Virus record (IMG/VR): IMGVR_UViG_3300008262_003982
Length of the DNA: 64,000 nt
Direction: 5' to 3' (one strand)
Origin: a virus
Lineage: Duplodnaviria > Heunggongvirae > Uroviricota > Caudoviricetes
Position numbers and translations under genes: made by a program
Notes under the pieces: model-generated
What the model saw: only the letters and a program-made list of their open reading frames with translations
Told to the model about the DNA's origin: nothing
Database searches by the model: none
In this document: positions 18,256-63,649 of the stretch, one piece after another
How the letters are laid out: the number at the start of each line of letters is the position of its first letter
How positions within the stretch are numbered: position 1 is the first letter of the stretch

Positions 18256-18916
18256 ACTTGCTATTTTAGGAGACAGTTGGGCATATGGTGCAGAACTTGA
18301 GCCAGGCGAAAAATCATTTGGCCAGATCATTGGTGACCGTTTGAATGTGACCAGTGTGGATAATGTTGCAGTACCTGGATCCAGCATTCCTCACACAGTG
18401 TTGCAACTCAAAGGCTTTTTAGACAAGTACCGCACTGAAAGAGAAAATCCAGACAATAGGTACACTGTATTGGTGTTTTTGACTTCTCAACAACGTCACA
18501 TGACCTGGCATGATCGGCTGGTACATTTGCAACCCAACGGAGTGGCTGTGCCCAATGCCAATCCCACAGAACACAATCTAAACGAATTGTATTACAAGTA
18601 TTTTTCTAGCGATGCCGCACACGATTATGCTGTGAACACTGCTATCTTGACTGTGCAAGGAATTTGCAGAGAAGCCAGGGTAAATGCACTATTTGTTGCT
18701 GGCTGGCAAAAGATAAAATTTTGGTCTGAAGTAGACACTAGATACATGTATGAGAATGGCAAGGTAACTTGTGCTGACATACTGGGAGTGAAATTTACCA
18801 GTATGGAACGAGGACATGAATTGTTTAGCAGTAGTGGTGGCCATCCCAATCAACTGGGCCATCAAGTTATAGCAGATAGGTTAATTAGATGGGTCACAAA
18901 TCAATTAATCTATTGA
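18245..18916 (+). CDS. SGNH/GDSL-like hydrolase
   Basis: N-terminal LAILGDSWAYG (GDS block I). Confidence 0.45.
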   Translation: MIHRLAILGDSWAYGAELEPGEKSFGQIIGDRLNVTSVDNVAVPGSSIPHTVLQLKGFLDKYRTERENPDNRYTVLVFLTSQQRHMTWHDRLVHLQPNGVAVPNANPTEHNLNELYYKYFSSDAAHDYAVNTAILTVQGICREARVNALFVAGWQKIKFWSEVDTRYMYENGKVTCADILGVKFTSMERGHELFSSSGGHPNQLGHQVIADRLIRWVTNQLIY

Positions 18917-18983
18917 CAAGTCAATCTAAATAGTTTACAATTAACACATAGACATCCACGTCTTATAACTCGGAGAATAACAA

Positions 18984-32598: not shown

Positions 32599-32953
32599 AC
32601 AACAGATTACCGAACGCATACTGACAGGTCTTCCGTCGGAAGACCAACTGACCTACGACGAAGCCTGCAAGTCATGGTGGATGAACTTTAGAGATGGCGG
32701 CGGATTCAGACTGACCAATGCTGGATATACAGCAATTGGTACTTGTGACTTAGAAACATACGCATTTGATGCTCCTTCTGACTTGGTTGCTAAACCCAAA
32801 CATTTACTGACCTTGGATAAAAAGTTAGATTGCCCTTACTACATTAAAATTGGCAAGCATCCGCAAATTGTTTTGTTTGGCAGTCAGCAGGCAGTGATGT
32901 TGGCCATGTACGGCGATCTAGAAAAGTGGTTGAAGTTTTTAAATCGCACTTAG
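32588..32953 (+). CDS. hypothetical protein
   Basis: 121 aa ORF. Confidence 0.45.
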   Translation: MLTKQQITERILTGLPSEDQLTYDEACKSWWMNFRDGGGFRLTNAGYTAIGTCDLETYAFDAPSDLVAKPKHLLTLDKKLDCPYYIKIGKHPQIVLFGSQQAVMLAMYGDLEKWLKFLNRT

Positions 32954-33898
32954 TTTTTTAGCCAACTGTTCAACGTCTTGAATGTACCGTTGTTGTGTGC
33001 CAGTTATAAATTCATCAAGCAAAAAACTTCTTTGTTTTTGCAGTCGCTCTTGGTATGGCGCAAGGTTAATTTTTCCCAGTATGAGATCTTGATTTTTCAT
33101 TATGGCTTGTTCGACTCGAACGTCATTGGACATGCTATCATAGCTGGTGTCCACCAGGTCGTCAAACATGTCAAACCCAAGCTCTCTACAGTCTTGCACA
33201 ATACCTTGGTGACCAATCACAATGGGTACCTGCTGTGCAATCATCGCCATCAATGTTTTTTCGCTCACAATGCCTGGCGGCTCATCATACTGTGTTTCAG
33301 TCACAATGTTCACTTGACATTTTGCATATACCGGCAACAGTCGCATGAAGTTATCTTCGTTTTCTGTGCCGCGATAGGTGTCATAAGCCCAAGCATCAAG
33401 TGGAATGTCGTTGCCGTAACTTAACACACCATTAGGCCAATGTTGCAAGATGTCCACAGCACGTCGACGATGCAAGCACATGCGACCATTGAGGCATTGC
33501 CATGCTGAAGTTTTTGCATTTATTGAATTGGTCCATTGTGACTCACGAGCTTGGATAGCAGTCACAGTGGCCATGTTGTGATTGCTGAATTCGATAAGGT
33601 TCACTGGTCCTTGATAGTATTTTTGTAAATTATGACTCCAATAAGTTACCAGCACACGATGTGCATTGGCGCCATAGTGGCGTTCTACTTGTTCCAGTTC
33701 AAGTATGCGACCCTGACATGGTGTTATGAAATCTTGAAAATGCAACAACAGCAGTGTGTTGTGTTTGAATTCAATGTTGGGCAACTTTAACGGCCAACCA
33801 GTTTCTGGACGATATGGCGGATCAAAGCAGTTGTAAACTGCATGCAGATCAAACCCCAAGCCAGAGAGTGTGTTGGCAAACAAAGATGTATAGTCCAT
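32939..33898 (-). CDS. hypothetical protein, paralogue family (LGFDMFDDLVDTSYD)
   Basis: 319 aa. C-terminal motif shared with 17254..18255 and 36086..37201. Confidence 0.5.
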   Translation of the reverse strand: MDYTSLFANTLSGLGFDLHAVYNCFDPPYRPETGWPLKLPNIEFKHNTLLLLHFQDFITPCQGRILELEQVERHYGANAHRVLVTYWSHNLQKYYQGPVNLIEFSNHNMATVTAIQARESQWTNSINAKTSAWQCLNGRMCLHRRRAVDILQHWPNGVLSYGNDIPLDAWAYDTYRGTENEDNFMRLLPVYAKCQVNIVTETQYDEPPGIVSEKTLMAMIAQQVPIVIGHQGIVQDCRELGFDMFDDLVDTSYDSMSNDVRVEQAIMKNQDLILGKINLAPYQERLQKQRSFLLDEFITGTQQRYIQDVEQLAKKLSAI

Positions 33899-34613
33899 GA
33901 CCTATTTACTAAGTAGATCTATGTATTGGAATAATCCTCTTGTGGAATTTCACTGGCCCAGCAAACAAGATCCCATTCAGATCAGTTCAAATCAAGGCAT
34001 GCATTGCTTGTTCTGGAATCCCAGTTGCGAATTTCGACACTTTTCAACCAACCAACGACTGAATGATCTTTGCGAATGGGCCAATCAGTGGCTAGATCAT
34101 GATGGGCCAGCAGGGTTTCTAGCTGAGCCGCGCAATCACTATGACATTGCCAATCTTGTCAAGCTCAACATGTGGATACGAGACATACGAGCACAGGGCA
34201 TTATAAAACCATTTTTGGTGTTAGATCAGGGTGATGGCACATATCTTGCTGGCAATGGAGATTCACGATTGCGATGTCTAGAACGATTGCCCGAAATACA
34301 AACTGTGCCAGGATTTATTACCACACATCACAGTCGAGCACACTTGTATTCAGACTTTGAACCAATCACAACTTTTGATAGATTTGCCAAACTGTGCGGA
34401 GCAGATCCCGGACAGTTGTTTACTTTTAGATTTACAGATTCTCAGGCACCATACGGGTTGTACTGGTATGAATTCAACAGTTCTCGCACTAGGTCAGTGA
34501 CTCCTAGCGAATCACAATGCTTGGATTGGGTTGAAAAATATTTCAAGCAACATCCGCATGTGCGGATAAGTCCTGAGTGGTTTGATCAAGATATTGATTG
34601 GCATAATATCTAA
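33897..34613 (+). CDS. ParB/Sulfiredoxin-like domain protein (DpdB-like candidate)
   Basis: DGTYLAGNGDSRLRCL resembles the ParB N-terminal GxxR box. Confidence 0.35.
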   Translation: MTYLLSRSMYWNNPLVEFHWPSKQDPIQISSNQGMHCLFWNPSCEFRHFSTNQRLNDLCEWANQWLDHDGPAGFLAEPRNHYDIANLVKLNMWIRDIRAQGIIKPFLVLDQGDGTYLAGNGDSRLRCLERLPEIQTVPGFITTHHSRAHLYSDFEPITTFDRFAKLCGADPGQLFTFRFTDSQAPYGLYWYEFNSSRTRSVTPSESQCLDWVEKYFKQHPHVRISPEWFDQDIDWHNI

Positions 34614-36084
34614 ATCCAGTTTTGACAATTTGCTTCCACTGTGGTGCCCGAGCCTGATCTGGCACAGTGAATTTCATCCAAGGCAATGAATCATTGCAAT
34701 GTCCAGTGAATCCTTTTTTGGGAAGTATCATTTCTTCAGGCCAGGAGGCCAAAAACTGTCGACGAATCAAAGGTTTGCCGCGCCTCAGGTGCATGGGAAG
34801 GCCAAGTGCAAACCGAATGATCTTAGGATGCACAAATGGCGAGCGTGGTTCAATGCCATGTGCCATGGTACAAACGTCAATGCCACGCATGTCTATTGCA
34901 CAAATTTGAGTGATATAATCCATCAACAGAGTGGCTGGCTCTGCTTGACCTTGATGTGCATGCAAACATTGTTGCCACAGTTGTTGAGCGTGAGTGTCAT
35001 TGCCAAATGAACTGTAAGGACTTGCACTTGTTTGTGTGGTGTATTCAAGCTGTGAGTAAACGCCATAGCCACCAAACAGTTCATCAGCGCCTACACCAGT
35101 AAACAACACACGTTCTTTGCAGTGTTGAGCAATTATCCACTGGCCAACAAAACTGTAGCTTTGAACTGGCATCAGTGTGCGACGACACACTTGCTCAAAT
35201 GCATCGGCCCATTGCTGTTCTGTAACACCAATGTTGATGATTTTGTCTCGTTGACTGCCTTCCAACATACGTTGAGATTGTTCACTCACTGGGTCTTTGC
35301 CCAGCATGTTGGTGGTATAATAGTGCTGACTTTGTGGAAGACTTTTTGCAACCACGCCAGAATCAAGCCCACCACTGAATGTGCAGGCATAAGATGTTTC
35401 TGGCCGCATGTCAGTGATTACCCGTTCCCACAAGGGTTGATATTCTTCCCAGGCCTGGTCCAATGTTTGAATACTACTGGGTTTGGCCCATGAAAAGATA
35501 CTGTCAATCACTGTGGTGTTGCCCGACTGATCATACATCACACCTGGCACACATCGTTCAATTCCTTGCCAAGGCGTGTTTTGCCAAATTGGATAGTGTT
35601 TGGTTGTGTAATCAATGTCTTGTAATTTTGGTCGGATGTATACCAAAATAGCTGCCACCTCAGAACTCACAATCAGTATGTTGTTGTCTTGATATCTGTA
35701 CAGGCATCTTTCGCCTTGTGGATCAGTGGCATATATCACTTGGTCGCCTTGAGCATACACCCACGCCCACGGTCCTTCAAAGTATTTGAGTTTTTTTACT
35801 GGTGCGTCTTTTACAGCACGATACATCAGCTCAGTGTCGTTGCTGTAGGAACCAAACCAGCGATAGTTGTAGATTTCGCCATTGAATGCAAAAAAATCAT
35901 CTGACTGTCGATTGTAAAATTGTGTGTTGCCAGTGATGTGCAGAACTGTTTGCGCACAGAACACACGACCATGATGTTGGTAACAGGTAAAATCTGGACC
36001 GCGATCTTTTAAAATTTCTAGAGCTTGGTTGTGCTTTTCTAGCGGTATATCAGTGGTGCTTTTTACGTATAGAACACCACACAT
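34543..36084 (-). CDS. asparagine synthetase B-like glutamine amidotransferase with PP-loop ATPase domain (Gat-QueC-like)
   Basis: N-terminal MCGV (Ntn class-II GATase Cys2) and FSGGLDSGVV (the SGGxDS PP-loop). 513 aa. Confidence 0.75.
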   Translation of the reverse strand: MCGVLYVKSTTDIPLEKHNQALEILKDRGPDFTCYQHHGRVFCAQTVLHITGNTQFYNRQSDDFFAFNGEIYNYRWFGSYSNDTELMYRAVKDAPVKKLKYFEGPWAWVYAQGDQVIYATDPQGERCLYRYQDNNILIVSSEVAAILVYIRPKLQDIDYTTKHYPIWQNTPWQGIERCVPGVMYDQSGNTTVIDSIFSWAKPSSIQTLDQAWEEYQPLWERVITDMRPETSYACTFSGGLDSGVVAKSLPQSQHYYTTNMLGKDPVSEQSQRMLEGSQRDKIINIGVTEQQWADAFEQVCRRTLMPVQSYSFVGQWIIAQHCKERVLFTGVGADELFGGYGVYSQLEYTTQTSASPYSSFGNDTHAQQLWQQCLHAHQGQAEPATLLMDYITQICAIDMRGIDVCTMAHGIEPRSPFVHPKIIRFALGLPMHLRRGKPLIRRQFLASWPEEMILPKKGFTGHCNDSLPWMKFTVPDQARAPQWKQIVKTGFRYYANQYLDQTTQDLSAHADVA

Positions 36085-36085
36085 G

Positions 36086-37201
36086 TTATTTGATATGGTC
36101 TATAACAGCCGGCAACCAAGCGGCAAACTCTGCAGGCCAACGAGCACTCATGTCTTTGAGCACCTTTTGATTTTGTCTGCTGGCAGTAAGGCAACGATGT
36201 CGCAGTTCTGTGCGATCCATAGCACTGAGTTTGGTAAATGTATCTGCGCCAGCAAAGATGTATTCAACCAGTTTGTCACCATAGGCAGCAGTTTTGTTTT
36301 CCATCATGACATCGTAACTGTGATTGACAATGTCTTTGAGTGTGTCAAATCCTAGACTTTCCAGATAGGCCACTGCATGGCGGCCAGCATACACTTGCCA
36401 GGGTGCCGGAGTGACCAATGCACGGAATATCTTCTCGCTGAGAGCAATTGAACTGTCACTGGAGTAGGTTTCAATTACCATGTTCACATAAGCACTGAGG
36501 TGTGCCTGCTCAACTGACATGTCATGATTTTTAAATGGCATGGTTTGAGCAATGCGTTCAAAAGTGTCACCATACACTGCTTTGTATTGTGGCTCTAGTT
36601 TTTCGTAGGCATCTCTGAAATTTTGATTGCATCCTTCAGCTGTGGAATTGTCACCTTCCCAACTCCAGCAGTTGAAATTGATAAAGTCCAACGTTTCAGC
36701 ATCTGGATACTTTTCACAACGCAACGCAATTTCCAGCATGGTCAACATGCGTTTGGAATCAATGCGATTGACTGAAAAATTAAATCTGCGTGTGGGATTG
36801 AAATTGGTCAGCTTGGGTTCATAATGATAGATGCCAAAGAAACTGGATGGCAGTTGAAACACCTTGTACAAGGTTGGACTGGTAACATAGTTGTCTGTGA
36901 TCACTGTGGTATTGCGATCAAATCGATATGCCACTGGTGTGTCATAGTCGTATGTGGTAGAGATGTAGTCGTCTACCAGACACAGCACCACAGTACGGTC
37001 TCCACGGCGCCATGTTTTGTGTCCATCTTGCACAGGCTCATATCCCAGTTTGATCAACAAACTGTGAAAGAAATTCATGGTATTATTTTCGTGCCATATG
37101 CATTGGCTGGTGTCAAAAATTTCGCTAGTGTAAATGTCGTGGTAAAGATCAGTGTCCATGCTGTTACTTATAGCCCACACTTTGGTTGACCAAATATTCA
37201 A
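36086..37201 (-). CDS. hypothetical protein, paralogue family (LGFDTLKDIVNHSYD)
   Basis: 371 aa. A TTG start at 37201 lies inside a promoter-like repeat. The alternative ATG at 37159 is more plausible. Confidence 0.45.
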   Translation of the reverse strand: MNIWSTKVWAISNSMDTDLYHDIYTSEIFDTSQCIWHENNTMNFFHSLLIKLGYEPVQDGHKTWRRGDRTVVLCLVDDYISTTYDYDTPVAYRFDRNTTVITDNYVTSPTLYKVFQLPSSFFGIYHYEPKLTNFNPTRRFNFSVNRIDSKRMLTMLEIALRCEKYPDAETLDFINFNCWSWEGDNSTAEGCNQNFRDAYEKLEPQYKAVYGDTFERIAQTMPFKNHDMSVEQAHLSAYVNMVIETYSSDSSIALSEKIFRALVTPAPWQVYAGRHAVAYLESLGFDTLKDIVNHSYDVMMENKTAAYGDKLVEYIFAGADTFTKLSAMDRTELRHRCLTASRQNQKVLKDMSARWPAEFAAWLPAVIDHIK

Positions 37202-37216
37202 TTTTTGCTGAAAAAA

Positions 37217-37258
37217 GTACTACTTTTAGGGCTAAAAAAAGTAGTACTTTTGTTGTAT
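37217..37258. terminator. bidirectional hairpin (16 bp stem AAAAAGTACTACTTTT / AAAAGTAGTACTTTTT)
   Basis: Perfect inverted repeat with A/T runs on both sides, sitting in a divergent intergenic region. Confidence 0.45.
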
Positions 37259-37278
37259 TTTTGCAACAGGCATTTCGG

Positions 37279-37313
37279 TTGACCAAAAATGCCCAAAATG
37301 CTATAATACACAC
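37279..37313 (+). promoter_or_regulatory. conserved early-type promoter GGTTGACCAAAAAT-N-GCTATAAT-ACACACAT (copy 1)
   Basis: TTGACC-N17-TATAAT. Near-identical copies at 37640, 37893 and 58619. Confidence 0.6.
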
Positions 37314-37643
37314 ATGATGAGAAAGAAACGTACTGATCGCAGCCACATAGTGTACATGATCCAAATTGGATTTGAGTACTACATTGGTATTACCGCAAAA
37401 ACCCAGCGCACAATCAACATGTCGCTCCGTAGCCGTGTGAACAAGCACATCTACCGTAGCCGCACAGAAGACAAAGGCTGGAACTTGTACGAAGCAATTC
37501 GCGCAAACGGTACTGAAGCAATGAACGTGGCTATCGTGGACATTGTGCGTGGCAAAGATGCCGCACATAAGTTGGAGCGCGAGTTAATACAAAAGTATGC
37601 ACCTGCGCTGAACACGGACGTTCGCGTGAAGCAAAACGGTTGA
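37314..37643 (+). CDS. GIY-YIG nuclease domain protein
   Basis: HIVYMIQ...YYIGIT...RVNKH fits the GIY-YIG core. 109 aa. Confidence 0.45.
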
Positions 37644-37676
37644 CACCAAATCACCGTTTTGCTATAATACACACAT
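37640..37676 (+). promoter_or_regulatory. conserved promoter copy 2 (TTGACA-N17-TATAAT-ACACACATAGACA)
   Basis: The stop codon TGA of the upstream gene lies inside the -35 box. Confidence 0.55.
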
Positions 37677-37695
37677 AGACAACAGAGGAGCCACC

Positions 37696-37896
37696 ATGCA
37701 CAAGATGATTCGCGGCAAATATGACTCGCTGTGGAAATGGAAGCTCAATCCGGTAGGATTAGCTCGCAAAACACATCGTCAGCGTGGCAAATTTGCCACA
37801 GCCATGCAGTATGCCTGCAGGGTTAAAGGTGGTGTTAAGGCAATACAATACATTCGCGATCAGCCCTGGGAAACCTGGACTGCTCTGCACGGTTGA
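37696..37896 (+). CDS. hypothetical small basic protein
   Basis: 66 aa ORF with a GAGGAG SD. Confidence 0.45.
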   Translation: MHKMIRGKYDSLWKWKLNPVGLARKTHRQRGKFATAMQYACRVKGGVKAIQYIRDQPWETWTALHG

Positions 37897-37930
37897 CCAA
37901 AAATTCCCAATTTGCTATAATACACACATA
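37893..37930 (+). promoter_or_regulatory. conserved promoter copy 3
   Basis: TTGACC-N17-TATAAT-ACACACATAGACA. The upstream stop lies inside the -35 box. Confidence 0.55.
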
Positions 37931-37948
37931 GACACTAAGGAGCTTGAG

Positions 37949-39340: not shown

Positions 39341-39440
39341 TTGAAATTGTTATTGTTATTGCAGTCGTTGTTATTATTGGCATAAATGTGCTAACAACAG
39401 TATCAACAAGATTCCGCCGATGGTTATATAAGGATGTAAA

Positions 39441-39734
39441 ATGAACGAACAAATTAAACTACTTGCGGTTGAGGCTGGCGCAGTATACAGCAATGACCAT
39501 GCTGTTTCATTGTTAGATGACGAAATTGAAAAGTTCGCCGAGTTGATTGTGCGGGAATGTTGCATAGCATTGAATCCCATGTTGCGTGACATGATCAGTC
39601 GCGGTCAGGGAGTAGATTTGATTAAATTGCATTTTGGAATGAATCCCAAAGAAATCACAACTGCTATGCTTGACGCCTCCATTGCTCAATGCGAACAAGA
39701 ATTAGCGAAAAAGAAATTTGGAGTTGAAGAATGA
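39441..39734 (+). CDS. hypothetical protein, paralogue A (FAELIVREC...HFGVEE)
   Basis: Shares the N-terminal MNEqIkxLA, the central KFAELIVREC and the C-terminal HFG(M/V) with 40101..40328. Confidence 0.5.
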   Translation: MNEQIKLLAVEAGAVYSNDHAVSLLDDEIEKFAELIVRECCIALNPMLRDMISRGQGVDLIKLHFGMNPKEITTAMLDASIAQCEQELAKKKFGVEE

Positions 39735-40100
39735 AAGTCTACGGCTATGCTGTTCAAACATTTGACAAAGACAGTGAAGTGCCCGATGTGAGTGTCCGTG
39801 TGTTTGCATCCAGGAACAATTTAGAATACGCACTAGAAAGTCTGGATCTGACAGAAGATCAAGAAATTTCTACTTTTGAAACAGAGGTTGAAGAATGAAC
39901 AAGCGTAAAATCACTACACGGGTTATCTTTGATGGTGCTGTGGATAAAACCTATACACAGATGCGACAAGTGTATACTGATGACAAGGGTGAGTATGTAA
40001 ATTGCAACCGCAATCGGTATCACATTGAGAATGATAGTTTTGATATTGTTTATACTACAGGTCAGGCGATATCGGTTAAAAAATTGTTTGAGGGTATGAT

Positions 40101-40328
40101 ATGAACGAACGAATTCGACAACTTGCTGAACAGGCTGGCTACGAAAAAGATATGTTTGGCATTGGACACTGGGATATGCCAGAGTGTAAAAAATTCGCCG
40201 AGTTGATTGTGAGAGAATGTATTGAACAAGCAAGCATTGGTAACGGGCACGGTAATAATCAATGGGATAGAGCGTTGACCTTTTCTGCAAAGAATATCAA
40301 AGAACATTTTGGAGTTGAAAGTGCCTAA
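40101..40328 (+). CDS. hypothetical protein, paralogue B
   Basis: See 39441..39734. Confidence 0.5.
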   Translation: MNERIRQLAEQAGYEKDMFGIGHWDMPECKKFAELIVRECIEQASIGNGHGNNQWDRALTFSAKNIKEHFGVESA

Positions 40329-42218: not shown

Positions 42219-42983
42219 ATGAAAAAGAAAAACTGGTTTGTGCCTTCGCACAACGAAATGATTGCATACAGTGCCTGTCTACATGTGATCCTGGTCTACT
42301 TTATCTTCAACAGTGAAGCATGGCAGTGGGCAATATGTCTGTTGGTCTACTATATCAAGATGGTAGTCGGAACTGTAACAGTTCATCGGCTGATCACCCA
42401 TCGTTCTTTTCAAGCACCAAAATGGTTTGAATATCTAGGAACATTGATTGCTATTCCTGGCACAACTTTACCAATGTTGTATTGGGTAGCAATACATCGA
42501 GCGCATCATAGACACTCTGACACAAAAGATGATCCGCACTCACCTGCGGTATACGGTTATCTAGCCGTGCAATTTAGACTCACACCTGCTACTCCAAAAT
42601 TAAGTTATGCTCCAGAGATTGTGAAATCCAAATTTCACATGCACATGTACTACAATCATTGGTTGTACACTATCTTGGTCGGGGTGGCAGTTTACATGAT
42701 AGATCCTTATGCAGTAGTGTATGCTTATTTGGTTCCGTCACTATTGTTGCAACATGCCAGTTCACTGACCAACTCTCTCACTCACAGTCCATCAGGATAT
42801 AGAAATTTTGACACACGTGATCAAAGTTCAAATAACCTGCTGGTAGGATATTTGACTGGTGGAGAGGGCTGGCACAACAATCATCACGCCGCTGCCGCAG
42901 ATCCACAGTTTGGCAAAAAATGGTGGGAATTTGATCCTGGATACCGCTTAATTCAATTGGTAAGAACTGACAAAGACCGTTGA
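42219..42983 (+). CDS. membrane fatty-acid (acyl-lipid/acyl-CoA delta-9-type) desaturase, paralogue 1
   Basis: Three His boxes: HRLITHRSF, HRAHHRHSD and GEGWHNNHHA. Multiple TM helices. Confidence 0.8.
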   Translation: MKKKNWFVPSHNEMIAYSACLHVILVYFIFNSEAWQWAICLLVYYIKMVVGTVTVHRLITHRSFQAPKWFEYLGTLIAIPGTTLPMLYWVAIHRAHHRHSDTKDDPHSPAVYGYLAVQFRLTPATPKLSYAPEIVKSKFHMHMYYNHWLYTILVGVAVYMIDPYAVVYAYLVPSLLLQHASSLTNSLTHSPSGYRNFDTRDQSSNNLLVGYLTGGEGWHNNHHAAAADPQFGKKWWEFDPGYRLIQLVRTDKDR

Positions 42984-43008
42984 CAAACACTTAGCATTTT
43001 TGTATAAT
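42980..43008 (+). promoter_or_regulatory. promoter TTGACA-N17-TATAAT
   Basis: Sequence motif upstream of 43038. Confidence 0.5.
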
Positions 43009-43037: not shown

Positions 43038-43418
43038 ATGGAATTTCTTCCAGTATTAGAACTAATTGATCGACTCTGCATTGCCAGAGTAAAACATGCA
43101 CGAACCAAAGGCGCCAACCAAGTTGAACTTGATTGGTACGAGGACAAGTTTCGACAACTACCACAAAGCGCAGAACTAGATGAGGACATTCAAGCAATGA
43201 CCGACATCCATCATGCTATCTGGGATCTAGAATGGCAGCTCAAATCAGGCGTGGAGCAAATGTTGAGCCTTCAGGAGATTGGTCGCCGAGCCATTGCCAT
43301 TAGAGATCATAACAACAAACGTATTGCTTACAAAAATTCTGTTGCCAGCATTTTAGGGCATCCTGTAAAAGAAATCAAACATGACCACCTGGCCGACGGA
43401 ACAGTTGACACTAAATAG
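43038..43418 (+). CDS. hypothetical protein
   Basis: 126 aa ORF with an AAAGGG SD. Confidence 0.45.
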   Translation: MEFLPVLELIDRLCIARVKHARTKGANQVELDWYEDKFRQLPQSAELDEDIQAMTDIHHAIWDLEWQLKSGVEQMLSLQEIGRRAIAIRDHNNKRIAYKNSVASILGHPVKEIKHDHLADGTVDTK

Positions 43419-43441
43419 TTTTCCTGCTACAATGTAGCACA

Positions 43442-43513
43442 GGGCCAATAGCTTAATGGTAAAGCAACCGACTCATAATCGGTCGAGTCTTGGTTCAATT
43501 CCAAGTTGGCCCA
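43442..43513 (+). tRNA. tRNA-Met (anticodon CAT)
   Basis: Acceptor GGGCCAA/TTGGCCC, anticodon loop cuCAUaa, T-loop TTCAATT, CCA encoded. Confidence 0.8.
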
Positions 43514-44240: not shown

Positions 44241-44390
44241 ATAGGTATGTGCTCAATCCCATAAAAAAACTACAAGAAAATCTAGCCCGAGACTTGGTCA
44301 GTCTGGAGGACACAGACTTGGTGTCGGAACAACAACTAGACAAAATTACTGATGCATACGCACAAGTGTATGACATCATCTCCAAAGCAG

Positions 44391-44419
44391 TTGACAAGCC
44401 CAAAGAATAAATATATACT
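44391..44419 (+). promoter_or_regulatory. promoter TTGACA-N17-TATACT driving tmRNA precursor
   Basis: Sequence motif immediately upstream of the acceptor piece. Confidence 0.5.
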
Positions 44420-44455
44420 GCGAGTTATTGCTGTATGAAGCCGAGAGAAAAGTGT

Positions 44456-44490
44456 TCTGGACGGGGGTGCGAATCCCCCCAGGTCCACCA
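44456..44490 (+). ncRNA. ssrA: tmRNA acceptor piece 3' end (T-arm plus 3' acceptor strand plus CCA)
   Basis: T-stem GGGGG/CCCCC with loop TGCGAAT. CAGGTCC pairs with GGGCCTG at 44706, with one G·U. Discriminator A and an encoded CCA. Confidence 0.7.
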
Positions 44491-44705
44491 TAAGGAAGTT
44501 TAATGATAGGTTATGTTTTATTTTTGTTATTTTGGTTAGTGTTTGGTGTATTTTATTTTACACGTGATACCACATTGGACGAAGAGAAAATAAAAAACTG
44601 TGAGTTATGGTAATATGGAAAATTTAGCAAAATTTTTATTAATTGTTTTTCCAATATTATGCTTGTTGTTAACAACATTAAGCGTAGATTAAGTTTCTTT
44701 ATGAT

Positions 44706-44866
44706 GGGCCTGACCTAGATTCGACAGGGCAAAGAGTAACAGAGTGGACAGCACGGTAGGCGATGACCGTAAATCAAGCAAAACTTTTATCTGCAAATGA
44801 TGAAAAATTCTTGATGGCCGCTTAAGGTCGTCTAGGGTAGGAAATACCTCGTAACAGAAACCACCA
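44706..44866 (+). ncRNA. ssrA: tmRNA coding piece (5' acceptor strand, D-like GAUUCGAC, tag ORF)
   Basis: GGGCCUGACCUAGAUUCGACAGGG matches the tmRNA 5' consensus GGGGCUGAUUCUGGAUUCGACGGG. Tag frame GCA AAT GAT GAA AAA TTC TTG ATG GCC GCT TAA gives ANDEKFLMAA. Confidence 0.7.
44793..44825 (+). other. tmRNA tag-peptide reading frame (A)NDEKFLMAA-stop
   Basis: Resume codon GCA. The ...AA-stop ending is typical of SsrA degradation tags. Confidence 0.65.
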
Positions 44867-44894
44867 AAATGGCTGCGAAAGTAGCCATTTTCTT
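44867..44894 (+). terminator. rho-independent terminator
   Basis: AAAATGGCT-GCGAAAGT-AGCCATTTT hairpin followed by TTTCTTT. Confidence 0.6.
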
Positions 44895-45862: not shown

Positions 45863-45884
45863 AACAGAAGTAGTACAAACCAAA

Positions 45885-45913
45885 AAACCCGCCAAGTAGG
45901 CGGGTTTTTTTAT
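45885..45913 (+). terminator. rho-independent terminator
   Basis: AAACCCGCC-AAGTA-GGCGGGTTTTTTT. Confidence 0.8.
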
Positions 45914-45928
45914 GGCAGTAGACCAATA

Positions 45929-46070
45929 ATTGGATTGGTGCTATACTAGACACAAGTTAGAAAAACAGCGAAGTTTGTAAAGACCCTGCAACAAGGCGGG
46001 GCATTTACAAAACAAGTTGACCAGTAAAGCAGGAGATGCTATACTAGAGACTAGTTAGAAAACAAAGGCA
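45929..46070 (+). promoter_or_regulatory. tandem repeated promoter-like elements (...GGTGCTATACTAGACACAAGTTAGAAAAACA / TTGACC-N17-GATGCTATACTAGAGACTAGTTAGAAAACA)
   Basis: Two copies of about 30 nt starting GCTATACTAGA. Each is followed by a strong hairpin (46001..46038 and 46106..46140). Confidence 0.4.
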
Positions 46071-46380
46071 GTTGATCGAAACTACTTTGAAGTTCGTTAA
46101 AAATTTAATTTTGTATAGTGCCCCAGATTAAGTTCTGGGCACTATATGTAAACACATTAGGGTTACCTAGTCCGTTAGGGGTGAACAAAGGCTGATTCGA
46201 GCCGGATACCCATGAAGCAGGAGGGCCTAAGAGTAGCGCGAGACACCATCGAGCGTGAGGGATAAGGCTACACCAAACTCCAGGAAGGCGGCGGAACTAC
46301 TGGGCCTGTAATGAGGTCTTGATGCAAGTTGGTGATGCGTGTCAAGAACTTCCCTAATGTGTTTTCATATAGTGAACTAT

Positions 46381-48595: not shown

Positions 48596-48624
48596 TTGAC
48601 AACAAAAGACGTTTGTCTTACAAT
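48596..48624 (+). promoter_or_regulatory. promoter TTGACA-N17-TACAAT
   Basis: Sequence motif. Transcribes into the ORF-poor GC-rich region. Confidence 0.5.
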
Positions 48625-48625
48625 A

Positions 48626-49620
48626 GATACATAGGGCAGTTTATTGTCCTGTGCAGTATGGTTCGCCCAGCTGTACGAAGAATAACTGGGGTGACCCAGC
48701 CAAAGGATGTATGCCTACATAAGTCCGCCAGCAATGGTTCATGTAAACAAGCCTGCTCAGGTCCGTGAGGATCCGATCACTGATAAGACCGGTGGTTGTA
48801 ACAATGACGCTGGGAGTATAGGAAAGAGCTGTAACTTACCGGCCCGCAAGGGTAACCGGAGTTGCAGAAAAGTAACAGGTGGTGCTGACTTCTATACAAA
48901 ACCAGCCCAGTTAATTGGTATGAGAAAGGGTAGCGTATCGGTCCGAGGGGTTGCACCCAAGGGCTCGTATGCAGTTTGAGTGGTTGGTGGAGGTACGCGA
49001 AAGCCGAGACCCGACACTGATCGCAAAAGACGTCTGAGTAGTTCGCAAGACAAAAGGAACGTGGTGTGTTGTATTTTGTATTCCAAAAGAGTATGAAGCA
49101 ACTGAGTCAGCACATCGCAGTAGGTTGATATAGCTCATCGTAGAGCAATTCCCTGTTAAGGAATAGGCTGTGGCTTCAAAACCACTATCTAACATAAAAG
49201 CAAAGACTGACTCGGTCATGTGTGAAAAGTATCTAATGCTGTAGCCGCAAGGCAATACAGTCAGACGTAACTCGCAAGGTGAAATCTGTTTATACTGGAA
49301 GTTTCGTAACTGTTTAGCGACAGTGAATGGCTCTAAAGGTCAACGGGATAGATGGTGTAGAGTAGCATGTGATGACAAGACTACTGCCTGTCTTTAAAAA
49401 CGGCGATACTGGTAACAGACTGTGATACATAGCAATATGGTTGCAGTGGAAATCGGAAGAAAGCAGACTCGCAAGGTTTGTAATAATGTCCGAGGTGTTA
49501 CTGGGTTAGGATGTATTCTCAGTCCGCCACTTTATATACAAACGCACTCCGTACCCGTTGGTGGTTGCTCAATTCAATGAATTGTTCCCCAAGCATAGAG
49601 TGTGTTTCTATATAAATAAT
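48626..49620 (+). ncRNA. candidate large structured ncRNA (about 1 kb, GNRA tetraloop-rich)
   Basis: Sits downstream of the promoter at 48596. No credible ORF. Repeated cGCAAg/cGAAAg hairpins: CCCGCAAGGG, GCGAAAGC, GCCGCAAGGC and CTCGCAAGG, the last occurring twice. Confidence 0.4.
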
Positions 49621-49735: not shown

Positions 49736-49764
49736 GTTGACCTCAAAAGGTAAATACTGTACAA
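49736..49764 (+). promoter_or_regulatory. promoter TTGACC-N17-TACAAT
   Basis: Sequence motif. Confidence 0.5.
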
Positions 49765-52794: not shown

Positions 52795-52950
52795 GTGATT
52801 GTGGCGGCGGCTGTTGCTGTCAACAACATCATAAGTCGTTACTGGAAGCCTGTAAAAATTTTCACAGCAGACAGTTGGAATCTGGGCCACGGCACAAGAT
52901 TTGCTGAACCCCATGAACTTGACAAAAGTCAAGAACCCAAAGTAAAATAA
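52795..52950 (+). CDS. possible small hydrophobic peptide (about 52 aa, GTG start)
   Basis: An AGGA SD lies 6 nt upstream of the GTG. Hydrophobic N-terminal segment VIVAAAVAVNNII. Lies between tRNAs. Confidence 0.2.
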   Translation: MIVAAAVAVNNIISRYWKPVKIFTADSWNLGHGTRFAEPHELDKSQEPKVK

Positions 52951-52956
52951 AATACA

Positions 52957-53030
52957 CGGAGTATAGCACAGCCTGGTAGTGCGCCTGGTTTGGGACCAGG
53001 AGGTCCGAGGTTCGAACCCTCGTACTCCGA
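52957..53030 (+). tRNA. tRNA-Pro (TGG)
   Basis: Acceptor CGGAGTA/TACTCCG, anticodon arm CCTGG-uuUGGga-CCAGG. Confidence 0.8.
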
Positions 53031-56428: not shown

Positions 56429-56557
56429 ATGGAATACGTATGCACTGTATGTGGCCATGTCCACAATGAAGAGACAGATGGTAAATTTGACGATTTGCCA
56501 AAATACTATAACTGTCCAGAGTGTGGTTGCGGTAAGGAAGAATTCCAGGCAATGTAA
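56429..56557 (+). CDS. rubredoxin-like zinc/iron-ribbon protein (42 aa)
   Basis: CTVCGH...NCPECGC gives two CxxC pairs. AGGAG SD. Corresponds to the C-terminal domain of fused rubrerythrins. Confidence 0.55.
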   Translation: MEYVCTVCGHVHNEETDGKFDDLPKYYNCPECGCGKEEFQAM

Positions 56558-56558
56558 C

Positions 56559-56590
56559 TTGACAACAATGTAGAACTGTGTTATACTGGT
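56559..56590 (+). promoter_or_regulatory. promoter TTGACA-N17-TATACT overlapped by an 11 bp perfect inverted repeat (candidate operator)
   Basis: ACAATGTAGAAC-N12-GTTCTACATTG spans the -35 to -10 region. Confidence 0.45.
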
Positions 56591-56596
56591 TCTACA

Positions 56597-56785
56597 TTGT
56601 TAAATAGTTATATGAACGATCCAAAATCTTCCAAACTCACTGACGCTGTGCGAGAGGCTCTTGCCAAAAAGCATGAGGCTGCTCGACCCACAGTAAAAAC
56701 CAAAACTACCAAGACCAAACAAAACTACGGCGCACCAATGATCAAAGGAGCACCTGTTAGAAAAGCCAGCGGAAGAGGTGGCTGA
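56597..56785 (+). CDS. hypothetical small basic protein
   Basis: 62 aa, Lys/Thr-rich. Confidence 0.4.
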   Translation: MLNSYMNDPKSSKLTDAVREALAKKHEAARPTVKTKTTKTKQNYGAPMIKGAPVRKASGRGG

Positions 56786-57340: not shown

Positions 57341-57752
57341 AGAAGACGGAGATAGAAGAAACAGTCTGCCTTACCCAATGGAGTTGGGCAGTCCTGCGTT
57401 TGCCCCTGTTCCTGTTGAACGAGAAAAAGATGTCATACTCAATGTAGGGCGAATGCATGCTCAACAAGAATATGACAGGATCATGCAACAAGTTGAAGTG
57501 TTAAAACAACAGGCCGACGCACTTCAACAACGCCTGCATGTTAGTGAGATCATGCACGGCGTCAAGTACGGCTTACAACCTCGACATGGTAAAACTTACT
57601 ATGTGTATTTTAACTCAATAAAAAACGAGCATTGGTTGAGTATGAATCATCCGCATCACTGGTGCGCTGGCCCTGGAGAACAGCACACCTACGTGATGGC
57701 AGTTAAAATGCTCGGCGACTCGACCTGGCAAGAAGTGCAATTAGACACATGA
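57327..57752 (+). CDS. hypothetical protein
   Basis: 141 aa ORF. Confidence 0.4.
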   Translation: MDLSKEDGDRRNSLPYPMELGSPAFAPVPVEREKDVILNVGRMHAQQEYDRIMQQVEVLKQQADALQQRLHVSEIMHGVKYGLQPRHGKTYYVYFNSIKNEHWLSMNHPHHWCAGPGEQHTYVMAVKMLGDSTWQEVQLDT

Positions 57753-58618
57753 AAATACAACTACACGAAAATGGTTGGACTTCAATCATTACTGATATTG
57801 ATTTACGTTCTGCTTCACAGCAAGAGATGAATACCATTGCTTGGCTTGCTGCCAAAGACACCGTGGTTGTGATACGCGATCAACACCTTTTGCCCGGAGA
57901 CGAAGTTGACATCTGTGAAAAAATTGGTGCATGTGAGCAAGTGGCGCCGGCTAATACGCCAACACCGGGCACAAAATTAGTACAAGGCGGGCGTGGTAAA
58001 ATTGTCAGAGTAGGTGGCGGTGGTCACCATCATGGACAACCAGGTGTGTTTGAACATGTGAGTGATCTAGATTGGCACTGCAATAGAACCGGTAGTGAAG
58101 ACCGAGATCCGTTGATTTGGTTGTATTCAGTAAAAGATTCTGTTGGCAGCCGAACCAGTTGGATCAACAACATTTTGAGTTATCAAGATCTTGACCAAGA
58201 ACTCAAAGAACAAATCAAAGATTTAAAACTGGTCATGGGGTTTGATGCTAGGGTGATCTCTGAAGACACTTACACAATCACCAGTCGAGATTCAAATGCC
58301 ATCAACCACAATTGGTATCCAAGTTTGTTACACACCAACCAGGCTGGTGTCACAGGCATGTTTTTTTCGTTTTTACAAATTCATCAGATACTGGGTTTTG
58401 ACAAAGACAAAAGCGATGCCCTAATTCAAAAATTACGACAACATGTGGAGCAAGAAAAATACACATATCACCACGATTGGCAAGACGGTGACATTGTGTT
58501 AAGTGAACAATGGTTAAGTATTCACAAAAGATGGCGCTGTGAAAACATTCAGAATCGAGTGGTGCATCGCATTGCTCTTAACTTTGATCACTGCAACATT
58601 TCTAATACTTTAGTGTGA
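57749..58618 (+). CDS. TauD/TfdA-family Fe(II)/2-oxoglutarate dioxygenase-like, paralogue 1
   Basis: DWHCNRTG compares with TauD WHTD. The C-terminal HHDWQDGDIVLSEQWLSIHKR compares with TauD RxxWxxGDlvxWDNRxxxHRA. Confidence 0.5.
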   Translation: MKIQLHENGWTSIITDIDLRSASQQEMNTIAWLAAKDTVVVIRDQHLLPGDEVDICEKIGACEQVAPANTPTPGTKLVQGGRGKIVRVGGGGHHHGQPGVFEHVSDLDWHCNRTGSEDRDPLIWLYSVKDSVGSRTSWINNILSYQDLDQELKEQIKDLKLVMGFDARVISEDTYTITSRDSNAINHNWYPSLLHTNQAGVTGMFFSFLQIHQILGFDKDKSDALIQKLRQHVEQEKYTYHHDWQDGDIVLSEQWLSIHKRWRCENIQNRVVHRIALNFDHCNISNTLV

Positions 58619-58650
58619 TTGACCAAAAATTCCTGATCTGCTATAATTAC
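58619..58650 (+). promoter_or_regulatory. conserved promoter copy 4 (TTGACC-N17-TATAAT)
   Basis: The upstream stop TGA lies inside the -35 box, as in the copies near 37.3–37.9 kb. Confidence 0.55.
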
Positions 58651-58673
58651 ACATTAACAGAAAGGAGTGCAAA

Positions 58674-59658: not shown

Positions 59659-60570
59659 ATGAAATTAACTTTAGATCCAAACGGCTGGGTAGTGCATGTA
59701 GATCAACTAAACGTGCTAGATGTAAACAGCACCGAACGCGATCAATTAAGAACGCTACCTTATACCAACTTGCTGGTTGTAATCCATAACACGCAACCGT
59801 TAACCATTGATCAATATCATCAATTTACTTCTGGTGTGTTTGATGATCTCAATAACGATCTTCCAGCCAAAGAAAAAATATTTGTCGAACAAACCAACAA
59901 AGAAATTATCAGAGTCACTGGTAAGAAAGATGTCCACGGTGAAATCACTGGATTATTTGGCATGCCAGATGATTTGCCTTGGCACTGCAACGAACCAGGA
60001 AGAACTGCCGCAGAACGTCCCGATGCTTTGTGTTTGTACGGGGTAGAACATACTGAAGGCAGCATCACAGGATTTACCAACAGCATACAAGCATTAAACG
60101 ATCTTAGGCAAGCAACCGATACACCAGTTGGACTATTAAGAAGTCTGGATCAGCTCATGTGTTATTACAATTACTCAGGCAGTACAGATAACGGGCCTAT
60201 GGCTGCAGACGTTAACTATCAAGGCAGAACAGGATTTAACAAATTTGTTACTCAAAACAAATCAGGGGCCACGGGCATCCATTGGTCACCCATGCAAAAT
60301 CCAATATTCTATATTGGCAAAACACCAGTTCCAAACGCTGGACAACAAGCATGGTTCAGTTATCTGTACAAATTTCTAACTCAGCCCAAGTACCAGTACG
60401 CTCATCATTGGCAAGACTATGAAATAATTATCAATTGCCAGTGGTTGAGCATGCATGCTCGTCCTGCATTTGAAAATATTGAAAACCGTCTGTTGTGGAG
60501 AGCCATGGGCTATGTTAGCCCATTTGATGGGTCAGCGATTGATACTGGCCAGCTTGAATTGCGCCAGTAG
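59659..60570 (+). CDS. TauD/TfdA-family dioxygenase-like, paralogue 2
   Basis: Paralogue of 57749..58618: PWHCNEPG and the C-terminal YAHHWQDYEIIINCQWLSMHAR. Confidence 0.5.
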   Translation: MKLTLDPNGWVVHVDQLNVLDVNSTERDQLRTLPYTNLLVVIHNTQPLTIDQYHQFTSGVFDDLNNDLPAKEKIFVEQTNKEIIRVTGKKDVHGEITGLFGMPDDLPWHCNEPGRTAAERPDALCLYGVEHTEGSITGFTNSIQALNDLRQATDTPVGLLRSLDQLMCYYNYSGSTDNGPMAADVNYQGRTGFNKFVTQNKSGATGIHWSPMQNPIFYIGKTPVPNAGQQAWFSYLYKFLTQPKYQYAHHWQDYEIIINCQWLSMHARPAFENIENRLLWRAMGYVSPFDGSAIDTGQLELRQ

Positions 60571-61314
60571 TTCAATTATTCTGGCAGGTGGGTCAATTTC
60601 ATACCAGCGTTGACTGAATCTATAGTTGGCTGCATTTTGATGATGGTTCTTGTGCCAAGCTTCGCCATTGTTGATGTTTAATAACACCATCAGCACACTG
60701 TTACTGCTGGTGTCATCATTGTGTATAGGTAGCAAGAACCAAGGTGTGCGATGACACAATGAATTGATTGTGTGAAGTTTGAACACTGTGAGTCCAATTA
60801 CTGCTATCCATAATCCTACCAGGGCAGGATCAATTGCAAATAACAATGCAAACCAAACTATGTTGAGGGCCCAGTACCAATGATAAAACCAAAGATGGCG
60901 AGAATCTCTACCAAGGTCCACAATGTATTTGGTTTTGACTTGATTGAAATAGCTCAAAAATTGAATAGCCCACCGACTCTTATGATATGGAGAATGTGGA
61001 TCACGGTCAGTGTCACAATGTGCATGATGTTCGCGATGAATTCCCACCCATCCAATGCTGTTGCCTACTAGGCACAAGGTAAATACAACAAGTCCATACA
61101 AATCAACTACTGAACTAGGTTTCCAGGCGCGATGACACCAGGCGCGATGCGCAAACATAGTGATGTGAATTCCCATAAACCAACTGGTCAATAGCACAAC
61201 AAAAAATGTAGTCCATGACCAGTTTATTGTCAACCAGATCACTGTCCAAATTGGAAATAACATGCCAACGGAACTGAGTGCCACTGGGTCGATCAAGGAG
61301 CGAGAGATTTTCAT
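60532..61314 (-). CDS. membrane fatty-acid desaturase, paralogue 2
   Basis: His boxes HRAWCHRAW, HREHHAHCDTDRDPHSP and EAWHKNHHQ. Confidence 0.75.
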   Translation of the reverse strand: MKISRSLIDPVALSSVGMLFPIWTVIWLTINWSWTTFFVVLLTSWFMGIHITMFAHRAWCHRAWKPSSVVDLYGLVVFTLCLVGNSIGWVGIHREHHAHCDTDRDPHSPYHKSRWAIQFLSYFNQVKTKYIVDLGRDSRHLWFYHWYWALNIVWFALLFAIDPALVGLWIAVIGLTVFKLHTINSLCHRTPWFLLPIHNDDTSSNSVLMVLLNINNGEAWHKNHHQNAANYRFSQRWYEIDPPARIIELLAQFKLASINR

Positions 61315-61355
61315 ATGAAATATTTATTTGCTCGCACACTAACTTAAATAATCGC

Positions 61356-63558: not shown

Positions 63559-63590
63559 AGCCCTACAACATGTAGGGCTTTTTTTTTGGT
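63559..63590 (+). terminator. rho-independent terminator
   Basis: AGCCCTACA-ACATG-TAGGGCT followed by nine T residues. Confidence 0.75.
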
Positions 63591-63619
63591 TTGACCAATA
63601 AATCCCTATCTGCTACAAT
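63591..63619 (+). promoter_or_regulatory. promoter TTGACC-N17-TACAAT
   Basis: Sequence motif, then an AAGGAG SD before 63650. Confidence 0.5.
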
Positions 63620-63649
63620 AGTGGCATACAAAGCAAAAAGGAGCCTGGA

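Follow-up and report, generated by a model that had tools for sequence, protein, structure and literature searches.

Promoter early stem-loop elements (PeSLs) are composites of a promoter and a stem-loop that are known from the T4-like phages RB49/phi1, T4/PST and KVP40/nt-1 (Arbiol et al. 2010, PMC2839356; Comeau et al. 2014, PMC4122927). Gene content that changes at promoter elements is the behaviour described for them (PMC2839356, PMC4122927), and in the searchable literature they have been described only for T4-like phages, besides a passing mention in a cyanophage study. Here we consider a repeated promoter cassette in a stretch of 64,000 nucleotides, called the window in the following, from a virus of the Caudoviricetes (IMG/VR record IMGVR_UViG_3300008262_003982). 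A first-pass annotation of this stretch had pointed to near-identical cassettes before small genes at 37279, 37640, 37893 and 58619 (P1, P2, P3 and P4 below) and had likened them to the PeSLs of T4-type phages. We think it probable that these are copies of one conserved regulatory cassette, a strong early promoter whose copies serve as points of gene exchange, which would amount functionally to the PeSL mechanism mostly without the stem-loop.

The likeness to PeSLs concerns both structure and behaviour. A near-consensus sigma70-like promoter is repeated and is followed by a Shine-Dalgarno sequence and a start codon, and the copies separate small ORFan genes of a hyperplastic region. Close relatives differ by indels, replacements and displacements with junctions in the element, although this is not the case for all the indels of the region here. 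The remnant at 37184, of which the -35 part alone is left, resembles the 'half-PeSLs' of nt-1 (PMC4122927). Moreover, the crossovers fall between the -10 box and the Shine-Dalgarno sequence, as in sequenced PeSL mini-circles, in our case as read from sequence comparison. On the other hand, a stem-loop or terminator is not a consistent part of the cassette here, and the upstream stop codon usually lies in the -35 box or the spacer, whereas in PeSLs it lies in an AT-rich tract upstream. The start-site and leader region is also much more conserved, with a 22-mer that is exact in more than 110 contigs among the matches listed, and the carrier belongs to an uncultivated lineage of jumbo phages with Atu_ph07 and Phosso as relatives, outside the T4 subfamily. 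The earlier comparison thus stands for the promoter hallmarks and the gene-content junctions, is only partly borne out for the stem-loop, which is inconsistent, and fails for the type of phage. By its sequence, the cassette is PeSL-like and stem-loop-poor rather than a strict PeSL.

Morons of lambdoid phages are autonomous promoter-gene-terminator units inserted between genes. As in the present case, single small accessory genes with their own promoter are present or absent between otherwise syntenic relatives, but morons have unrelated promoters and their own terminators, whereas here one promoter is repeated, terminators are mostly lacking and the repeat is itself the junction. The early promoters of T4 are conserved beyond the -35 and -10 boxes, have a GTTTAC-type -35 box and an A-rich UP region, and outcompete host promoters. 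The cassette shares with this type of phage early promoter the conserved positions outside the hexamers, and differs from it by the canonical TTGAC(A/C) and TATAAT with TGn, the GG upstream and the conserved CATAGACA start region. With integron cassettes there is a likeness by analogy only, in that single-gene units are bounded by a short conserved exchange site and the unit is circularly permuted relative to the site. However, the genes bounded by attC sites are promoterless, whereas here the conserved site is the promoter, with no integrase or attC-like folded site, and each unit either carries a promoter along or is provided with one.

Anatomy and conservation of the cassette

The pattern TTGAC-N15-TGnTATAAT (TTGACNNNNNNNNNNNNNNNTGNTATAAT) occurs without mismatch at all four positions that the first-pass annotation had named. 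Three of the copies (37279, 37893 and 58619) have the hexamers TTGACC-N17-TATAAT and that at 37640 has TTGACA-N17-TATAAT, all of them with a TGn extended -10 element. When up to two mismatches are allowed, the whole window holds 18 matches, 16 of them on the + strand, against 2.8 +/- 1.4 in shuffled sequences. Looser members of the family lie at 63591, 42980 and 18913. An independent search for repeats gave a family of seven copies of 29 nt (D4: 37186, 37279, 37640, 37893, 42980, 58619 and 63591) and another of five copies of 46 nt (D5). The longer consensus once proposed for the four copies holds for the promoter part, but the full 21-mer GCTATAATACACACATAGACA is exact only at 37661 and 37914. 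The copy at 37279 reads ...ACACACATGATGA, the ATG of the gene taking over after ACACAC, and that at 58619 reads ...TTACACATTAACA, with the leader TACACATTAACA. On the upstream side, GGTTGACCAAAAAT is exact at 37277 and 37891, has one mismatch at 58617 and 37184, and three at 37638. The degenerate fifth copy that had been put at 37178 does exist, but it starts at 37184 and keeps GGTTGACC and the spacer, with no -10 box. Most of the strong copies lie at 37-64 kb, among tRNAs and open reading frames (ORFs) of 35-150 amino acids (aa) without Pfam matches, and few are found in the replication module at 1-32 kb.

The cassette can be summarized as GG-TTGAC(C/A), an A/T-rich 17-bp spacer cAATAATTCCCAATT, TGC-TATAAT, ACACA-CATAGACA, an A/C-rich leader, AAGGAGC(C), 4-6 nt and ATG, in which promoter and leader form a unit of ~55 bp. 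A Shine-Dalgarno sequence and a start codon are found downstream of P2, P3, P4 and the copy numbered P5; P1 is without a Shine-Dalgarno sequence. The coordinates are collected in Table 1.

Table 1. Cassettes, genes and hairpins of the window, with the sequence elements of each
Feature	Position	Strand	Details
Degenerate cassette	37184-37213	+	GGTTGACCAAATATTCAATTTTTGCT then GAAAA; keeps -35 GGTTGACC and spacer, -10 lost; D4 member, 72% identical
AT-rich 14-bp hairpin AAAGTACTACTTTT/AAAAGTAGTACTTT and T-rich tract	37214-37251		~28 nt upstream of P1
P1	37277-37313	+	GG; -35 37279-84; TGn; -10 37302-07; ATG at 37314
GIY-YIG gene, 109 aa	37314-37643	+	stop codon TGA 37641-43, shared with the P2 -35 box
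P2 cassette	37638-37695	+	GG; -35 37640-45; -10 37663-68; core 37660-81
P2 leader		+	predicted +1 A37675; Shine-Dalgarno GAGGAG 37685-90; ATG 37696
g2, 66-aa gene	37696-37896	+	stop TGA 37894-96 inside P3 -35 box
P3 cassette	37891-37948	+	GG; -35 37893-98; -10 37916-21; core 37913-34
P3 leader		+	predicted +1 A37928; Shine-Dalgarno AAGGAG 37937-42; ATG 37949
g3, 66-aa gene behind P3	37949-38149	+	predicted to be driven by P3
42980 promoter	42980-43008	+	TTGACA-N17-TATAAT; 12/12 hexamer positions; no TGn
P4 cassette	58617-58673	+	-35 58619-24; -10 58642-47; Shine-Dalgarno AAGGAG; ATG 58674
77-aa gene after P4	58674-58907	+	
Terminator and promoter composite	63559-63649	+	9-bp GC hairpin 63559-79, then T9; -35 63591-96; -10 TACAAT 63614-19
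Leader of the 63591 copy		+	alternative leader AGTGGCATACAAAGCAA; Shine-Dalgarno; ATG 63650
Outlying family member, replication module	18913-18953	+	TTGACA-N17-TACAAT, then TAACACATAGACA

Conservation of the cassette extends far beyond the window. In IMG/VR, the invariant 22-mer core TGCTATAATACACACATAGACA has more than 110 exact matches among the matches listed, to which all counts of core sites given here refer, and the flanks of these sites yield the consensus GGTTGACC-aataattcccaatt-TGCTATAATACACACATAGACA-gcaa(c)aaa-AGGAGCc-N4-6-ATG. When unique sites are chosen by the core alone, TTGAC lies exactly 17 bp upstream of TATAAT in 80 of 89, GG stands before TTGAC in 73 of 89, and a Shine-Dalgarno-like sequence with a start codon follows within 40 nt downstream in 85 of 89. 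Another 350 unique sites, picked by TTGAC-N18-TAnAAT and without the exact core, still show ggTTGAC...tgnTATAATAnanaCATAnacA (consensus TATAATA.a.aCATA.acA). The core is present even in contigs whose orthologue of a neighbouring 357-aa protein is just 45-54% identical to that of the window, and on such comparisons the cassette is far better conserved than the sequence that surrounds it. The alternative leader variant TATAATAGTGGCATAGAAAGCAA, found at 63591 and also in L120 and L125 (relatives are given L-numbers here and are assembled metagenomic contigs), has no exact match in IMG/VR. A literature search for the core sequence found no mention of it.

Besides starting a gene, the cassette tends to contain the end of the preceding one. 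The TGA stop of the upstream ORF had been placed inside the -35 box in three cases. This is so at 37640 (ORF 37314-37643, ending ...AAC GGT TGA) and at 37893 (ORF 37696-37896, ending ...CAC GGT TGA), but at 58619 the TGA of a TauD-like gene (58616-18) abuts the 5' side of TTGACC and is merely adjacent; the third embedded stop is that at 42980 (ORF 42219-42983), which had not been listed. No + strand gene lies upstream of 37279, where the cassette stands in a divergent intergenic region and the minus-strand coding sequence ends at 37159. Across the family, ORFs with 50 codons or more end most often at the TGA of TTGAC (53 of 237 unique sites), while 28 further stops lie elsewhere within the promoter. 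All three frames are closed by the consensus cassette: the -35 box supplies TGA, CAATAAT supplies TAA and CATAGACA supplies TAG.

Two hexamers, a 17-bp spacing and a TGn element are the textbook determinants of an extended -10 promoter for the primary sigma factor. The cassettes have TGn before TATAAT, a TTGACA-like -35 box at 17 +/- 1 bp and a purine 6-8 nt after the -10 box, and in the window tRNA genes and the transfer-messenger RNA (tmRNA) gene adjoin promoters of this type. We consider it very likely that the repeats are strong extended -10 promoters of the sigma70 type. They would be read by the RNA polymerase of the host with its primary sigma factor, most likely early in infection. Transcription would start at the A of the conserved CAT(A), 7 nt past the -10 box; the seventh base after the -10 box is indeed the A of the conserved CA.

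At P1 the ATG of the GIY-YIG gene (37314) begins with this seventh base, and there is no Shine-Dalgarno sequence. The same geometry, 7 nt from the -10 box to the ATG and no Shine-Dalgarno sequence, is found in 15 of 15 orthologous loci and in most paralogues, down to ~45% identity (for example TATAATACACACATGG, TATAATATACGCATGG and TATAATCAATGCATGA; relatives L003, L013, L022, L038, L050, L057, L060, L075, L092 and L112-L114). Only the two most distant paralogues, in L007 and L071, have a leader with a Shine-Dalgarno sequence. In the orthologous P1 sites just GGTTGAC, TATAATA and CATG are invariant, and spacer and discriminator drift. Retention of this geometry over so large a divergence would be hard to explain unless transcription started at that A, and the GIY-YIG mRNA is therefore predicted to be leaderless. 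The cI mRNA transcribed from PRM of phage lambda is a leaderless phage mRNA. The likeness lies in the ATG placed 7 nt after the -10 box without a Shine-Dalgarno sequence, and the difference in that here the predicted leaderless arrangement is kept in a whole paralogous family across many phages. Elsewhere in the window, the promoter at 49737 has an ATG 8 nt after its -10 box and may be leaderless too.

The assignment of this gene, which had been read as coding for a GIY-YIG domain protein, is sound at the level of the family, in which PF01541 is matched by 10 of 15 homologues (best E = 6.5e-6), and Y14, Y23-I24-G25, R41, E88 and N100 are invariant across the 15. The window protein alone gives a weak match that is below the cut-off (PF01541, E = 1.6e-3), and the family profile found no significant match among solved structures. 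On this family evidence the product of 37314-37643 is a GIY-YIG domain protein made up of that domain alone. The 3' end of the GIY-YIG genes overlaps the next promoter.

Stem-loops accompany some of the copies. The hairpin upstream of P1 (37214-37251) is well supported by folding (z = -4.6, 0 of 200 shuffles fold as well) and is present in most relatives, although its arms are not complementary in L058 and L065. Upstream of 63591 there is a canonical terminator (63559-79, z = -2.6), and by its sequence this is the only copy in the window with the classical PeSL architecture. At P2 a weak hairpin of 8-10 bp, AAAACGG...CCGTTTT, surrounds the -35 box (z = -2.1) and is lost in more distant orthologues; folding found no hairpin at P3 (37893), P4 (58619) or 42980. 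Among 247 unique sites, terminator-like hairpins lie just upstream in 16, against 5 of 247 controls, and hairpins of -10 kcal/mol or below that span the -35 box occur in 30% of the sites and 15% of the controls (p = 1e-4). The stem-loop, present in a minority of the copies, is thus an occasional companion of the cassette and no constant part of it. Two other candidate motifs were discarded. The hairpin motif AAAGTAnTACTTT, considered as a recurrent operator, has 2 matches in place of 0.2 expected, and these are only the two arms at 37214 and 37238. The sequence TATAAGTA upstream of a minus-strand gene, considered as a recurrent promoter of late type, is not over-represented.

Changes of gene content at the cassettes

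The cassettes coincide with breakpoints of synteny. The idea that they shuffle small genes gains from the comparison of related phages, in which gene content differs at the cassettes, namely in the genes after P2, in a unit at 37184 and on the flanks of P4. The 3' end of the GIY-YIG gene is conserved in 12 relatives together with the -35 box, spacer and core of P2, and the gene that follows varies. It is g2 in the window only, g3 in L058, L065, L077 and L090, g4 in L020, L021, L040 and L067, and two other genes in L010/L024 and in L026. The gene g2 is missing from all syntenic relatives, and g3 from L020, L021, L040 and L067. In L077 the upstream half of P2 is joined to a P3-like leader, and the extra DNA of the window is exactly one promoter-to-promoter period, that is, the 253 bp from P2 to P3. 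L020, which is without g2 and g3, has 96.8% nucleotide identity with the window upstream of P2 and 83.8% downstream, the drop starting, by eye, within ~40 nt 5' of the P2 -35 box.

The best documented unit is that of g2, whose homologues form 18 clusters in metagenomes. In L122-L127 it lies between a porin-like gene and a DNA ligase, and in L120/L121 in another context. Its homologues in three other contexts have a cassette on both sides every time, and their stop codon falls within the promoter that follows, either as GGT TGA or as a TAA of the spacer. The leader ACAACA(G/A)AGGAGCCACC-ATG is common to the window and L122 and travels with g2, as do the downstream -35 box and spacer, and the upstream -35 box and spacer and the downstream leader belong to the resident genes. 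Since leader and downstream -35 box and spacer move with g2, the unit exchanged would consist of the leader, the gene, and the -35 box and spacer of the cassette that follows, both crossovers lying in the core. In L122 the repeats that flank g2 are identical over ~55 bp. Judged from these contexts, g2 behaves as a mobile cassette.

A second case is a unit of gene plus promoter between near-identical cassettes, which is present in 6 loci and absent from 15 with the same flanks. At the position of 37184, L112, L113, L114 and L067 have an intact promoter and an extra small gene, then a hairpin or terminator, and then P1. Of this promoter and gene, L020, L111 and the window have kept no more than -35 box and spacer. 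By this comparison the 37184 copy is the deletion scar of a promoter-plus-gene unit.

At P4 both flanks are rearrangement junctions. In L129 the orthologous promoter stands behind a different gene and, as predicted, directly drives the gene at 58919. The window has instead a translocated TauD-like gene, whose junction lies ~20 nt upstream of the -35 box, and leader and Shine-Dalgarno sequence are followed by the 77-aa gene as an insertion. The TauD-family dioxygenase gene itself (57749-58618) is displaced with respect to the two closest relatives, L128 and L129, where it lies between the orthologues of 61278-62057 and 62054-62785. A TauD paralogue is found at 59659-60570, and homology to the TauD gene of the relatives stops ~20 nt before P4. 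More widely, the 119 core sites with complete flanks can be grouped into ~50 clusters by their upstream context and 46 by their downstream context, and 10 of the joins are recombinant.

Proposed exchange at the cassettes and competing explanations

Taken as a working unit, the cassette would give each small gene its own start of transcription and of translation. It would also close the preceding ORF, because TGA lies in the -35 box and the TAA and TAG of spacer and leader serve the other two frames, so that genes could abut the cassette without an intergenic spacer. The copies could be used as crossover points because the same 22-55 bp recur within the genome and across related genomes, and exchange would take place within the invariant core of -10 box and start site. 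Genes could in this way be inserted, deleted or swapped with their expression signals kept. We lean towards the view that the repeats themselves mediate the exchange and are a cause of the rearrangements rather than a mark of them.

Several observations weigh against this explanation, and part of them speak for a simpler one, in which the copies are only ordinary strong promoters. Their likeness would come from selection towards the optimum of the host polymerase, and junctions would lie at them only because an indel is viable when the promoter downstream of it stays intact. Random deletions and insertions would be trimmed by selection to the promoter edge, which would also give the stops in the -35 box. 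In L065 the gene upstream of 42980 is deleted exactly to the -35 box, with no homology at the left end, and the truncated ORF again ends GGT TGA. This looks like an illegitimate deletion trimmed to the promoter edge by selection; it follows that a selection filter, under which deletion is tolerated up to that edge, also operates, and this filter may account for many of the embedded stops. Of the 6 indels that separate the window from L065 at 37-44 kb, just 2 touch a cassette, and most indels there are not bounded by one. Nearly every gene junction in this hyperplastic region is broken in some relative, so no statistical excess of breakpoints at the cassettes can be demonstrated. The identical block of P2 and P3 is 22-24 bp, which is short for homologous recombination, and the drift of the P1 sites outside their three invariant elements is also what ordinary promoters would show. 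Spacers and leaders are significantly more alike within than between loci (0.40 vs 0.33 and 0.49 vs 0.43, respectively), but this could reflect lineage-specific promoter variants and not gene conversion, and we judge it not decisive. Nevertheless, spacer and leader carry little weight for sigma70 recognition and are common to copies in unrelated contexts. Moreover, g2 takes the same leader and downstream spacer into different genomes, the repeats of L122 are identical over ~55 bp, L077 is a clean P2/P3 hybrid, the indel is exactly one repeat period, and the alternative leader has no IMG/VR match where the core has over 110. For these reasons we consider ordinary promoters an unlikely account of the whole.

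A bolder extension of exchange at the repeats would make the 22-bp core the crossover site of an active, integron-like system of cassette exchange across a large clade of uncultivated freshwater jumbo phages. Units of leader, gene and following -35 box with spacer would be cut out and put in, possibly by way of mini-circles and possibly aided by the small GIY-YIG nucleases, predicted to be leaderless and themselves bounded by cassettes, the element being a module of three-frame stop, promoter and ribosome-binding site. If this were true, any captured ORF would be expressed at once, but we regard the proposal as rather doubtful.

The core might instead be the target of an active sequence-specific mobility system, either a homing-like GIY-YIG nuclease or a recombinase such as acts at integron attC sites. 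GIY-YIG paralogues are frequent in cassette-rich loci, and each of them lies between a promoter of the predicted leaderless type and a cassette into which the 3' end of the gene extends. On either side of g2 the crossovers fall in one and the same short invariant block, and the core is exact across lineages in which the 357-aa neighbour has fallen to 45-54% identity. Against this, the GIY-YIG protein of ~105 aa has no recognisable DNA-binding domain and is too small for the known homing endonucleases, the window holds a single copy of it, no recombinase was found adjoining the cassettes, and function as promoter and start site accounts adequately for the conservation of the core. Such a system is in our opinion improbable.

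There is still less to recommend the view that the block is read by a phage-encoded RNA polymerase as its promoter, or serves a phage regulator as operator or RNA site, and is not a host sigma70 promoter. The conserved region, from about -15 to +7, has an extent like that of the promoters of single-subunit polymerases, and conservation goes beyond the classical sigma70 elements to the GG in front of the -35 box and to the leader CATAGACA. Yet TTGAC at exactly 17 bp from TATAAT in 90% of the core-selected sites, with TGn, is characteristic of a primary sigma factor, the tRNAs and tmRNA of the window are predicted to be driven by promoters of this type, and a search of the window that was not exhaustive showed no gene for a phage RNA polymerase. 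We consider this alternative very improbable. A comparison by eye of the core with promoters of single-subunit polymerases, which have ATAG alone in common with it, led us to dismiss that candidate.

Finally, that the shuffling is an artefact of metagenome assembly is hardly credible: all the relatives are assembled metagenomic contigs with junctions at a repeated sequence, and repeats can cause mis-joins, yet each arrangement is found in 2-6 independent samples (L058/L065/L077, L010/L024, L122-L124, L125-L127, and L120 from ENA with L121 from JGI) and the shared exact blocks, mostly of 22-45 bp, are shorter than the usual final assembly k-mers, which together make chimeric contigs unlikely, and the flanks diverge gradually with no abrupt switch of identity.

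Genome setting and implications

The window begins with a replication module of T4-superfamily type on the + strand (1-32 kb), followed by three minus-strand genes at 32.9-37.2 kb and by a region of small + strand genes with 28 tRNAs and a tmRNA (37-64 kb). Its DNA polymerase is closest to those of the jumbo phages Sinorhizobium Phosso (51%) and Agrobacterium Atu_ph07 (47%). A nucleotide search with the region and the cassette consensus gave no useful match among 50,697 deposited phage records, and the motif was found in no cultured relative. A related IMG/VR contig, IMGVR_UViG_3300027759_000045, is 346.9 kb long. Because of this polymerase affinity, the lack of a nucleotide match among deposited genomes and the size of the related contig, the phage of the window is best placed as an uncultivated jumbo phage of a distant lineage outside the T4 subfamily. 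In one scan of genome contigs, the non-viral matches to the core were just two contigs of freshwater metagenome-assembled genomes, probably mis-binned phage. By that scan the core is not a motif of host chromosomes, and it gave no assignment of the host.

Other features of the window deserve mention. The short minus-strand block at 32939-37159, divergent from the cassette region, contains a gene for an asparagine-synthase-like protein (PF00733 with a glutamine amidotransferase domain; 34543-36084), whose two neighbours have no Pfam matches. Within the tRNA region there is a full-length GOLLD RNA at 49061-49525 on the + strand (Rfam RF02032, 204 bits against a gathering score of 150, model positions 1-416). 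An Rfam tRNA match (49124-49194) is nested in it, at which ARAGORN made no call, and a sigma70-like promoter lies at 48596, ~440 nt upstream. The tmRNA is of the permuted two-piece kind (44387-44868, +; RF04321, 115 bits; alpha_tmRNA, 57 bits), with the tag ANDEKFLMAA according to ARAGORN and a TTGACA-N17-TATACT promoter (44391) at its 5' end, and it may point to the host lineage.

Further sigma70-like promoters on the + strand, at 43405-43442 and 52919-52957, end ~8 nt before tRNA-Met (43442) and tRNA-Pro (52957), so that these tRNA clusters would be transcribed nearly without a 5' leader. A bidirectional terminator at 45882-45910 is followed by promoter-like copies at 45919 and 46017, 98 nt apart (45882-46073, +). 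These copies have the similar downstream sequence TGCTATACTAGAsACwAGTTAGAAAA with no obvious ORF, and they may make small RNAs upstream of tRNA-Glu (46381). At 56552-56613 (+) a perfect 12-bp palindrome, ACAATGTAGAAC / GTTCTACATTGT, brackets the -10 box of the promoter 56559, in what looks like an operator arrangement. Two paralogous small genes (39441-39734 and 40101-40328) have a common 5' end (repeat D15, 73% identical; 39424-39479 and 40084-40139), and homologues of the D15 genes form tandem arrays of 2-3 copies in L017, L021, L063 and L103.

The rapid turnover of accessory genes in large phages is only partly understood, and PeSLs are among the few mechanisms proposed for it. The mechanism suggested here is not itself new, but its logic would be extended to a distant clade of uncultivated jumbo phages from lakes, in which the regulatory cassette shows a higher conservation than among T4-like phages. 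Public metagenomes already contain dozens of natural before-and-after arrangements, with the boundaries of the units readable to the base pair. Viromes sequenced with long reads could tell whether the repeats cause or mark the rearrangements, and whether exchange needs ~22-55 bp of homology or a dedicated enzyme. From a practical point of view, the cassette is a compact natural part that combines stop codon, strong promoter, leader and Shine-Dalgarno sequence. Its consensus could aid the annotation of early regions, and possibly the identification of hosts, in this group of phages.

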